Source: Candidatus Latescibacterota bacterium
GTDB taxonomy: Bacteria > Latescibacterota > UBA2968 > UBA8231
Assembly: GCA_965203175.1 (NCBI GenBank)
Contig: OZ241867.1
Span: 5,888,001 to 5,952,000, forward strand
Reading direction: 5' to 3'
DNA length: 64,000 bases
Below the pieces are notes generated by a model, which was not told the DNA's origin, made no database searches, and was given only the letters and a program-made list of their open reading frames with translations. The position numbers and the translations under genes were made by a program. This document shows, in pieces, positions 46,777 to 49,123 of the stretch. Each line of letters opens with the position of its first letter. Positions within the stretch are counted from its first letter, which is position 1.

Positions 46777-47496
46777 ATGGCAATCGCTTGGGAAATCCCG
46801 TCGGGCTGGCCTCGGCTCAGCGACGATGAAATCCACGTCTGGTGCGTCGAGTTGGACGCGGCTGGTGAAGTGGCCGCACTCGCGGCTTGTCTGAGCGAGG
46901 AAGAGCGCGAGCGAGCGAGCGGCTTGCTCTCCGGCACCCATCAGCGGCGCTTTGTGGTGGCGCGGGGGATGCTGCGCCAGCTTCTGGGGCTATACCTCGA
47001 CCAAGATCCCGGCGCGGTGACTTTTTCGCGCGGCGCGCACGGCAAGCCCTTTCTGCAAGAAGGCGGGCCGCATTTCAACGTGTCCCACACCCACGAGCTA
47101 GCCCTGTATGCGATAGCGCGCGACCGCGAGGTCGGCGTTGATGCGGAGTGGATGCGCCCCCAAGTCGCGCACGAGCAAATTGCCGCGCGCTTCTTTTCGC
47201 TAGAGGAGCAGGAGGCACTGGCGCAGGTGGCGGACGAGGAGCGGCGGACGGCTTTTTACAACATCTGGACGCGCAAGGAAGCCTATGTCAAAGCGCGGGG
47301 CGACGGCATTGCCGCTGGCCTTGGCACCTTTGCGGTGTCGCTGGGAGCAGAGGCGGCGCTTTTGCACTCGGACGAGGGGCGGGACGAATTGGAGCGGTGG
47401 AAGTTAATCGCTTTGGAACCGGCGGACGGATACGTCGCGGCTTTGTGCGGGGCTGGCGTGGACTGGCAGGTGCAGGGTTGGCGCTGGCGGCCTTAG
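46777..47496 (+). CDS. Sfp-type 4'-phosphopantetheinyl transferase
   Basis: HGKP, FNVSHT, VGVDAE, WTRKEAYVKARG.G. Confidence 0.92.
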   Translation: MAIAWEIPSGWPRLSDDEIHVWCVELDAAGEVAALAACLSEEERERASGLLSGTHQRRFVVARGMLRQLLGLYLDQDPGAVTFSRGAHGKPFLQEGGPHFNVSHTHELALYAIARDREVGVDAEWMRPQVAHEQIAARFFSLEEQEALAQVADEERRTAFYNIWTRKEAYVKARGDGIAAGLGTFAVSLGAEAALLHSDEGRDELERWKLIALEPADGYVAALCGAGVDWQVQGWRWRP

Positions 47497-47542
47497 CAAG
47501 CGGCTCGCCTTCGTGCGCGCCGCTCCCCACATGGAACCGTCC

Positions 47543-47749
47543 TCATTGAAGCGTATCTCCAATGAGGCTGCTGCCGTCCGCGGCTATCACATAAAGCTCA
47601 GCATTCCCATCGCGCTCGGACACAAAGGCGATGCGTTGGCCGTCCGGAGACCACGCCAGATAACAGTCGTTGCCGGCGTCGTGCGTGAGGTTGGTTGCGA
47701 CATCGCAGCCGAAAACTAATCCTATGAGACAGCCGATCATTGCCTTCAT
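47543..47749 (-). pseudogene. Small lipoprotein-like ORF with one PD40/TolB repeat, probably a relic
   Basis: MKAMIGCLIGLVFGC lipobox; AWSPDGQRIAFVSERDGNAELYVIAADGS. One blade cannot form a propeller. The ATG abuts the IS-like element. Confidence 0.6.
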
Positions 47750-48314
47750 AGAAAATCTCCGTGAGACTGGCGGCTTGAGCCGTCAGAGGGATAGGGGCGG
47801 TTTTCACGACGGGCTGGCAACGCACGAGGCGTTGGTAGTCCCTGAGTGAGAGCCGATATATTTTGCCTATAACTCATCCCTTTAGTTATAGACAAAATTA
47901 ATTGGACTGCGTTCTGCATAGTAGCCATGCTTTTTAGTGCGCCCGAATACCCGCCGGATGCGTTACGAATAGCGGGTCGAGCGTCGCGCTTAGGCAAAAG
48001 GCACCCTCTTGTGAGGGGTAAAACAGTTTCAGTCCCACGATAGCGCGCCGCCCCACACGTCGATAGCACTGTATGCGTGGACCGTAGTGGCAAAGCAGGT
48101 CAGCCAGTAGGATTTGCCACTGCGAACGCCTCGGGAGCTTCTCCCCCAAGTGGCTGCTTGGTGTCAGCAGGCGTATAGTTTCGCCGAGTAGCATGATGTC
48201 GCATCCCGCGATGTGGTGCTGCATCCGAATACCTCCGGTTTAGCACGGTGCTCGCGCTAGAGGGGTTGGGAAAAGGCAGGGACAAGCCGACTACTTCAGT
48301 GGTCGGTGGCTGAC
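47750..48314 (+). mobile_element. Non-autonomous IS200/IS605-family element (no tnpA or tnpB)
   Basis: Left end: target TCAT (47746-49), guide GAGA (47763-66), hairpin CTGGCGGC-TTGA-GCCGTCAG. Right end: guide CAAG (48283-86), hairpin CCGACTAC-TTCA-GTGGTCGG, end TGAC (48311-14). No target duplication or terminal inverted repeats. Confidence 0.75.
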
Positions 48315-48338
48315 AGCGTCAACTCAATTGAATTTTTT
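47936..48338 (+). ncRNA. Candidate large structured RNA ending in an omegaRNA-like scaffold plus flank-derived guide
   Basis: Many stems with G-U wobbles on the + strand; GTCAGCCA (48099-106) is complementary to terminal TGGCTGAC; T6 tract 18 nt past the element end. The 5' boundary is a guess. Confidence 0.45.
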
Positions 48339-48373
48339 AGGCGTGCGCGCCAAAGACATCCACTGAGAGAGAA

Positions 48374-49123
48374 TCAGACGATCCGCTGCGTCACCACGCC
48401 GTGCAGATCCATCTCAAAGTCGATGTCCACAACCGGCGGCCGAGCGTAGTGCCAACAAACGCCGCCGCGCCGCGCCGCACCCATCGTCGGCAGGAGAATC
48501 TCTTCGAGGATTTCCGCTAAAGGATAGATGGTGTACACGTCAACCGCGTCAATCAAATCCCACGTTCCGCCCAAGCCCATAAGCCGCTCGCCCATAACCT
48601 GCGCCACATAAGCGGCCTTCTCGCGCATAGCAGCGGGCGACGTGTCGCCGGAGCGGATAATCCCCTCGGTCACGAGGAGCCCCTCCCGCAATTCGCCGGC
48701 ACCGGCCACGATCAGCGTTTTGCGGGCGATCTGATCGTTGGGAATCGCGTAGGAAAAGGCATACAGCGAAGGCACAGCCGGCGGATCGCACGCCGGCGCA
48801 ACATTCGTGCGCGCCACCGGATTGAGTTCGTCCACGTACAAACCCCACGCCTTCAGGACGGCGCAATACTCGCGGTTGAAGTCAATAAACCCCTGCATGG
48901 TAAAAGGCTCAGGCGAGCGCAGTTCCATCGCGCAGAGCGAGACTCGGTCGCAGCCTTCCGCCGCCAGATGCGCATCCACGCGCTCAAAGCCCTCGCGCCA
49001 AGGCAGCGGCTCGGCCAGCACAACGCGGACGATCTCCCAACCCGGCTCGGCGACGACGCCACAAGAATAGGGATCAATGCCCTGGAGAAAGCGATAGTGT
49101 CCTTTGGGATGTGCAATCAGCAT
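48374..49123 (-). CDS. CnbZ-like (2-amino-5-chloromuconate deaminase family) protein
   Basis: YRFL.GI.PYS.GV.A.PG.EI, CAMELRSPEPF, NPVARTNV.P, RPPV..I.FEMD. Confidence 0.7.
   Translation of the reverse strand: MLIAHPKGHYRFLQGIDPYSCGVVAEPGWEIVRVVLAEPLPWREGFERVDAHLAAEGCDRVSLCAMELRSPEPFTMQGFIDFNREYCAVLKAWGLYVDELNPVARTNVAPACDPPAVPSLYAFSYAIPNDQIARKTLIVAGAGELREGLLVTEGIIRSGDTSPAAMREKAAYVAQVMGERLMGLGGTWDLIDAVDVYTIYPLAEILEEILLPTMGAARRGGVCWHYARPPVVDIDFEMDLHGVVTQRIV

Follow-up and report, generated by a model that had tools for sequence, protein, structure and literature searches.

The 64,000-nucleotide stretch of DNA analyzed here (the window) comes from a Candidatus Latescibacterota bacterium (assembly GCA_965203175.1, contig OZ241867.1, positions 5,888,001 to 5,952,000). 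At 47750-48314 on its plus strand it carries a discrete protein-free element of 565 bp, very probably a PATE (palindrome-associated transposable element) of the IS200/IS605 family and thus a member of a class already known. A first-pass annotation, made from the sequence alone, had described a non-autonomous IS200/IS605-type element with both ends intact. This description is borne out by an exact empty site, mobile copies, related ends and co-resident enzymes, and the homologs have sharp boundaries. It did not mention that protein-free elements of this kind form an established class, that the insertion is exactly at a host start codon, or that the 3' part of the cargo resembles the guide-RNA region of TnpB.

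The orthologous site in G023, a genome of the same genus, reads TTCAT|AGCGTCAACTC, while the window reads TTCAT|element|AGCGTCAACTC. The empty site is therefore exact, and there is no target-site duplication. At this point, the start of a PD40-repeat gene, the G023 sequence is ...GATCATTGCCTTCAT|AGCGTCAACTCC..., that is, TCAT is followed directly by the 11 bases found after TGAC in the window. Contigs of four coded public runs, two of them RNA runs (X15 and X16), were also compared with the window; the runs containing this stretch are mostly labelled sponge metagenomes. One contig of run X3 joins 47749 to 48315, skipping the 565 bases (letters between the two are possible). Another X3 contig departs from the window sequence directly after 48314, and an X3 contig identical to the window over 47746-48190 (0 differences) is preceded by 26 bases unlike those of the window. 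In the run X3 community the same element occupies another TCAT site while this locus is empty. In addition, genome G020 has a homolog of 563 bp with 73% identity and TCAT|...TGAC| ends in a different genomic context. Copies with different flanks, which the first-pass annotation expected to be preceded by TCAT and to end in TGAC, were thus found (with CCAT when the guide is GG--); their boundaries are sharp and the preference for TCAT is evident. The possibility that two chance or repetitive extragenic palindromic (REP)-like hairpins lie in an ordinary, immobile intergenic spacer has a practically negligible probability. Short G+C-rich hairpins are common in a genome of 59% G+C, but the exact empty site and the occurrence of the same element with other flanks refute an immobile structure, the ends are homologous to those of tnpA and tnpB elements, and the whole of 47497-48375 is absent from at least nine of the 30 other genomes of the genus.

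The element lies in the gap (47750-48373) between two minus-strand open reading frames (ORFs), and its own features are given here on the plus strand. The target TCAT (47746-47749) is outside the element, which inserts 3' of it and starts at 47750 with AGAAAATC, as read directly from the sequence; the complement of the target holds the ATG of the minus-strand ORF. The left guide GAGA (47763-47766) covaries with the target tetranucleotide and directly precedes the left subterminal hairpin (47767-47786; CTGGCGGC / TTGA / GCCGTCAG), an 8-bp stem with one G-T pair and the loop TTGA that was recognized both in the sequence and by an nhmmer left-end model. At the other end, the right guide CAAG (48283-48286) precedes the right subterminal hairpin (48287-48306; CCGACTAC / TTCA / GTGGTCGG), again an 8-bp stem, with one T-G pair, the loop TTCA and compensatory stem changes across copies. 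TGGC comes next, and then the cleavage tetranucleotide TGAC (48311-48314), the final bases of the element, directly after which the flanks diverge. The two 8-bp hairpins with their loops, each with a tetranucleotide directly 5', are present as first described, with one wobble in each stem instead of eight Watson-Crick pairs. TCAT is indeed upstream of GAGA, but at a distance of 13 nt and not of 14 nt as first reported. The palindromes are subterminal at both ends, and terminal inverted repeats are lacking: AGAAAATC... and ...GGCTGAC do not form such a pair. Further inside, a second conserved left-end block (47807-47846) holds the hairpin AACGC-ACGAG-GCGTT (47819-47833) and the motif CCCTGAG. 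It is kept in all four aligned PATE left ends and in full-length elements, and it alone is common to run X3 contigs of other elements, which have loose ends at 47807 and 47846. The sole A+T-rich stretch of the element (47860-47915) might be proposed as a candidate promoter for a cargo RNA.

In IS608 the guide/cleavage pairs are AAAG/TTAC and GAAT/TCAA. The first-pass annotation had extended this rule to the pairs GAGA-TCAT and CAAG-TGAC, and the natural variation of the ends agrees with it. From all fetched loci, 45 distinct pairs of left end and flank were obtained after removal of exact-duplicate flanks. The tetranucleotide before the hairpin was tallied against the four bases outside the element with a motif rule, the output of which was checked line by line. 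Forty-one of the 45 left flanks end in YCAT. A GA-- guide accompanies 29/29 TCAT flanks and a GG-- guide all 11 CCAT flanks with a recognizable guide (Fisher P = 4e-10, an overstated value, as the sequences are related); in these combinations the second base of the guide is paired with the first base of the target. Departures from the rule are four GAGC guides beside TCAT, a TGGA guide beside CCAT, single CTAT and CCCT flanks, and two misaligned ends. On the right side, CAAG is found with TGAC, vs AAAG with TTAC in another family, and a 437-bp protein-free family from other Latescibacterota genomes has GAAG with TCAC in 4/4 visible left ends. In the sequences compared, the IS608 positional rule predicts the natural variation at both ends (TCAT/CCAT, TGAC/TTAC, TCAC). 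With 45 left ends and two types of right end, the covariation of guide and target confirms this rule in silico, and unusually cleanly, in a distant phylum. Meers et al. (2023; PMC10055086) describe in general how a DNA guide within the left end reads the target motif through base-pairing.

Relatives of both ends are present elsewhere in the same genome. Six other places carry a match to the first ~50-100 bases of the element, and four carry one to the last ~45-260 bases. With the copies aligned on the presumed boundaries, all seven own-genome left ends have in common ...CAT| and an A-rich sequence after it, while the DNA on the outer side is unrelated. Similarly, four of the five right ends share AGGGACAAGCYG-hairpin-GTGGYTGAY| followed by unrelated DNA (three with TGAC and one with TGAT), and the fifth is truncated by a further insertion. 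Of the left-end matches, two are located directly upstream of the only two Y1 transposase genes of the genome, each of which is followed by a tnpB; they are 78-79% identical to the left end in the window over 67-91 nt. One right-end match lies 41 nt past the stop codon of a tnpB. Profile searches paired the ends around six tnpB-only and two tnpA+tnpB elements and delineated three protein-free pairs of 437-478 bp. The window element resembles the two tnpA+tnpB elements in its left end and the tnpB-only elements in its right end. All six tnpB-only elements of the genome end in TTGAC|, as do 25 of the 27 related tnpB-only right ends of the genus.

Cognate tnpA and tnpB genes, for which the first-pass annotation proposed a search, are both encoded in the same genome (two tnpA, one of them intact, and 12-13 tnpB). 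The two Y1 tnpA genes match PF01797 at 126-128 bits. The one at genome positions 330735-331130 is intact, with HUH and Tyr motifs (HVH, SYYA); the other (4688189-4688593) has ACG where the first has its ATG start, and it may be inactive or use an unusual start. There are 13 PF07282 matches to tnpB, 12 of them strong, with open frames of 360-445 amino acids (aa). One tnpB of the family that shares the right end of the window element aligns to Cas12f/TnpB structures and has the motifs GVDLG, LEDL and HADYNAARN, which we take to be the RuvC catalytic positions.

The element itself does not appear to encode a protein. A blastx search of 47700-48400 against the 13 TnpB and two TnpA ORFs of the genome detected no similarity (best E 0.99), and a degenerate tnpB was rejected because nothing fell below this value among the 15 ORFs. 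The internal ORFs (115, 96 and 61 aa) belong to no Pfam family, and so the absence of TnpA/TnpB coding reported in the first-pass annotation is supported by both searches. Three minus-strand ORFs do exist, and one of them could represent a small unrecognized protein, which we regard as most improbable: they have no Pfam family, their frame and length are not kept in G020, and long chance ORFs are common, with 35% of ATGR sites opening at least 68 codons. In the G020 copy only ~22 residues persist, at a place where the DNA itself is conserved. There is thus no coding signal, and the interior is conserved as non-coding sequence, in line with the non-coding cargo suggested earlier.

The conserved interior begins with a block at 47938-48071 (plus strand) that contains the hairpin CCCTC-TTGT-GAGGG (48004-48017) followed by TAAAACAGTTTC. 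This block has 74% identity with a copy at 353 kb of the genome that is truncated on its 3' side, and it is also found in G020, the copy of which aligns to the element throughout. The 437-bp Latescibacterota family keeps the interior hairpin with CCCTC/GAGGG swapped for CTCTC/GAGAG. The 3' module (48055-48314, plus) is 78% identical to 362745-363006 (minus) and 77% identical to 356243-356442 (plus), two fragments in the same genome. In an RNAalifold prediction from four copies, 15 of the 67 pairs show compensatory change. Compared with shuffled sequences, 48040-48334 folds better on the plus strand (z -1.98) and not on the minus strand (z -0.57).

The same kind of signal is found at the 3' ends of the tnpB genes. 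In the last 260 nt of 26 tnpB-only elements, compensatory change was seen in 13 of 53 pairs, even within the coding region, as expected for a guide RNA overlapping the end of tnpB. A covariance model, R1, was built from the last 175 nt of the same 26 tnpB-only 3' ends. It matches 48161-48314 (plus strand) with 26.5 bits and a rough E of 4e-7, ending at 48314, the last base of the element. This omega-RNA-like segment keeps the outer helix GTGTCAG...GGCTGAC, one stem and the right hairpin. The kept stem pairs ATAGTTTCGCC (48175-48185) with GGCAGGGAC (48275-48283) and adjoins the right hairpin; RNAalifold and the covariance model pair 48175-48285 differently. The copies at 362 kb and in G020 both score ~25 bits with R1 (one 25.4 and the other 25.3). 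Three other PATE lineages have the same layout; the 437-bp family scores 27.9 bits and a different PATE of the same genome 23.9 bits. We read this as suggesting that tnpB elements and the window element have the right-end RNA module in common, or that the element is derived from this module. As to function, we give roughly even weight to the proposal that the cargo is transcribed rightwards into a structured RNA whose last ~150 nt would be an omega-RNA region guiding TnpB in trans. If a read-through omega-RNA is made, the right flank AGCGTCAACTCAATTG (48315-48330) would serve as its guide; the first 11 nt of this flank are the bases after TCAT in G023.

The steps of excision and insertion can be outlined from the established mechanism of IS608 and ISDra2. 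A Y1 HUH transposase made elsewhere, for which the intact tnpA at 330735-331130 is the candidate, would act in trans, bind both hairpins on the single-stranded top strand and find the cleavage sites via GAGA (for TCAT) and CAAG (for TGAC). Excision would give a single-stranded circle with the junction TGAC|AGAA and a donor resealed as TCAT|AGCG, the latter being a form that we infer from the natural empty sites. The circle would then insert 3' of another TCAT. The transcript would run into the flank as the guide, TnpB supplied in trans would cut the resealed TCAT + AGCGTCAACTC..., and the element would be copied back.

Several observations speak against parts of this scheme. First of all, the R1 match is without 84 of the 173 model positions (three stems) and carries an 88-nt loop insert, and much of its score is contributed by the right end itself. 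Rfam gave 0 matches for the whole window at gathering thresholds, and for 47400-48700 at E up to 10 it gave two chance matches only (17-18 bits); identity with a known RNA family was consequently rejected. No site was found in a sigma-70 consensus scan of 47500-48600, a consensus that may not be the one of this phylum, and the RNA runs X15 and X16 gave no contig on the element, although contigs cannot show absence; the exception is a 36-nt right-end-like piece of a relative. At the left ends, four with TCAT carry GAGC, which breaks the pairing at the fourth position. Elements of the IS200/IS605 family are reported to have an orientation bias, with the top strand on the lagging-strand template. 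No replication-strand bias was detected among 14 elements, a small sample in which replication direction was taken from the GC skew only: the replichore of negative GC skew holds eight plus and six minus elements, and the window copy (plus) is on the side that the rule does not predict. Finally, the own genome (a single 6.58-Mb contig) has one full copy of the element and the 30 other genomes of the genus that were searched have only one other, so activity must be rare here. The GC skew of the chromosome switches sign near 1.9 Mb and 4.5 Mb, which gives unequal replichores of ~2.6 and 4.0 Mb. The window contains neither tRNA nor tmRNA genes.

The lost model positions would also fit a mobile PATE with functionless debris as its cargo, i.e., a former tnpB-only element from which internal deletion and rearrangement removed the gene and which rides on TnpA alone. 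Such an origin agrees with the formation of PATEs by core deletion of IS605-type elements, as described in a part of Dyall-Smith et al. (2011; PMC3119063), with the low copy number of the family and with the contigs of the RNA runs, which hold no evidence of a transcript. We nevertheless consider debris unlikely. Across five lineages or fragments the interior blocks keep 73-78% identity and thus do not fall behind the ends, and the interior hairpin is conserved with compensatory change in a distant family. Moreover, the changes in 15 of the 67 predicted pairs and the stem beside the right hairpin, which is kept in four PATE lineages, argue for a structured cargo.

PATEs are known from Haloquadratum walsbyi (Dyall-Smith et al., 2011; PMC3119063), and the comparison below draws on parts of that paper. 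As in those elements, the palindromes of the window element are near-terminal, terminal inverted repeats and target duplication are absent, and the length is too short for a transposase. The ends again have relatives among the co-resident IS605-type transposons, and partial and truncated copies exist. The host, however, is a bacterium (Candidatus Latescibacterota) and not a haloarchaeon, and there is no sequence relationship. In contrast to the 52-bp PATE form that consists of fused ends, the window element has 565 bp with a large, conserved and structured interior. PATE-like elements with omega-RNAs are also known from Geobacillus stearothermophilus, and PATEs "often encode omega-RNAs" that need TnpB in trans, according to a part of Meers et al. 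(2023; PMC10055086). As in that species, the window element is protein-free, its ends match co-resident tnpB elements and one tnpA would serve many elements in trans. In G. stearothermophilus, however, the omega-RNAs were detected by RNA sequencing and the activity of TnpA and TnpB was shown, whereas here the RNA is predicted from a partial match to a tnpB-linked model.

A comparison within the genome is with the tnpB-only (IS1341-type) elements, e.g., the one at 1225868-1227163. They have the right end AGGGACAAGCYG-hairpin-GTGGYTGAC, a YCAT target, the stem beside the right hairpin and related left ends in common with the window element. They encode, however, a TnpB of ~390 aa with an RNA-like structure overlapping the 3' coding end, where the window element has unrelated non-coding sequence. 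The insertion 3' of a tetra- or pentanucleotide, the subterminal hairpins and a guide 5' of each hairpin are shared with IS608 of Helicobacter pylori and ISDra2 of Deinococcus radiodurans; these two carry tnpA and tnpB while the window element has neither, and its target is YCAT. The window element is a well-documented PATE from a Latescibacterota lineage that is uncultured and associated with sponges, and its site is known in both natural states, empty and filled. If the cargo turned out to be a working omega-RNA, the element would represent a minimal guide-only transposon, with a defined set of TnpB, transposon-adjacent motif (TAM; TCAT/CCAT) and scaffold.

The position of the insertion relative to the host gene deserves separate attention. 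The minus-strand ORF at 47543-47749 encodes a 68-aa remnant of a PD40-repeat lipoprotein (PD40 E 3.6e-10; lipobox read from the translation), and its ATG adjoins the left end. In G023 the same ATG opens a long multi-repeat PD40 lipoprotein gene with a native GGAG 8 nt before the ATG. In the window, the insertion moved this native GGAG away, and a Shine-Dalgarno-like GGAG inside the left end (47757-47760, minus strand) takes its place 7 nt before the ATG at 47749-47747. Purine-rich motifs were seen by eye at the same position in most left ends. Among the 45 left ends, 21 have an outward ATG-led ORF of at least 68 aa or reaching the end of the locus; this count sets aside one 177-aa ORF, which is the C-terminal part of a disrupted methylase. 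Pfam was applied to 20 of those ORFs and to the one in the window, and 19 of the 21 carry a domain in that frame. In most of them the domain starts at profile position 1-11 inside the first 3-60 residues of the ORF or comes after a signal peptide. Judged by these frames and domains, at least 19 of the 45 insertions are exactly on a real start codon.

In comparison, start codons make up ~3% of all ATGR sites and 7.5-11% of the sites outside a coding mask, a crude one that fails to cover 25% of the genome. If intergenic DNA is taken as 12%, an estimate by hand (not computed) places ~18% of sites at start codons. On these numbers the excess is real. Its cause may be purifying selection or the accessibility of sites instead of an evolved strategy. 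YCAT is the complement of ATGR, and the first dozen bases of the left end, read outward, resemble a portable Shine-Dalgarno sequence with the right spacing, from which the idea of docking on start codons arises. We advance only tentatively that the lineage evolved to dock on start codons by means of the Shine-Dalgarno sequence in its left end, the PATE being in addition a guide-RNA-only hitch-hiker that borrows TnpA and TnpB. Insertion between the ribosome-binding site of a gene and its ATG would then leave translation intact, and through docking the 5' edges of genes would become available as a class of safe sites to land on. If docking were adaptive, the end of a transposon could carry a translation signal for a displaced host gene, which would bear on the persistence of such elements at high density near genes. 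Among the titles and abstracts listed by one full-text literature search, none links IS605 elements with start codons or Shine-Dalgarno sequences, although this does not show that such a link is unpublished.

The GGAG inside the left end raises a further possibility: the main retained effect of the element could be on the neighboring gene, to which the left end would supply a ribosome-binding site and perhaps an outward promoter, with the cargo RNA being secondary. The position of this GGAG 7 nt before the ATG and the 19 or more of 45 left ends adjoining real gene starts, against a null of 7.5-11% from the crude mask or ~18% from the hand estimate, are what such an effect would predict. We find it rather doubtful, however. 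The gene served in the window is a 68-aa remnant, the sigma-70-type scan of 47500-48600 gave no outward promoter, and the related 437-bp family targets TCAC without a link to start codons. The enrichment could also reflect the purging of intragenic insertions, or more single-stranded DNA near promoters.

The genes on both sides of the element are found in 31/31 genomes of the genus. A phosphopantetheinyl-transferase gene (46777-47496) directly adjoins the gene for a 249-aa protein (48376 onward) in at least nine of the 30 other genomes, which marks 47497-48375 as an insertion-prone variable spot. Across the genus these two genes are separated by 0 to ~6 kb, and the PD40-repeat genes in between differ widely in length. 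The PD40 gene of the window is cut to 68 aa, and ~270 bp of the G023 spacer are absent. The 249-aa protein (48374-49123, minus strand) has no Pfam family at E 0.01; its gene has 71-95% DNA identity in 29 of the 30 other genomes and a 35-nt match only in the thirtieth. The start codon of hisD adjoins an element of the same family in two genomes, in opposite orientations, namely at 352.9-353.2 kb of the own genome and in G012; in the own genome the neighbor is the truncated 3' side of a copy, and in G012 it is a left end docked on the ATG.

Other protein-free elements were encountered as well. The own genome has a different 437-bp element at 4939967-4940403 (plus) and 5446543-5446979 (minus), with 426/437 positions identical and TCAT|...TTAC| ends that resemble those of the tnpA+tnpB elements. 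These are two of the three protein-free pairs of 437-478 bp delineated above, and such identity at different loci points to recent transposition. One of these copies is on the start codon of a gene for a SIMPL-domain lipoprotein and the other on that of a PLP-dependent decarboxylase gene. The family known from seven loci of other Candidatus Latescibacterota consists of protein-free copies of 437-439 bp that are 98-99% identical, with TTCAC|...TTGAC| ends and the guide GAAG; it has the interior hairpin motif and the right-end module in common with the window element. A scan of genome contigs gave 26 stretches, nine of them from Candidatus Latescibacterota, comprising the G020 copy, seven of the 437-bp family and one further variant. 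Seven of the 17 stretches from outside this group were compared with the element by blastn, with 0 matches. A scan of a metagenome collection with the interior pattern gave six stretches, none similar to the element by blastn; they were set aside as chance matches and added no homologs. A 31-nt piece (48033-48063) matches single loci in six genomes at 90-94%, and since the own-genome match lies inside a membrane-protein ORF, it was treated as a chance match repeated by orthology.

The region at ~316-403 kb of the own genome, covered by 11 of the loci, is densely filled with remains of mobile DNA. Eight of the 13 tnpB matches are located there, along with one tnpA and a DNA-methylase gene split by a tnpB-only element, and the region also has fragments of the present PATE family cut by IS30-like and IS4-like transposase remnants (names read by eye).

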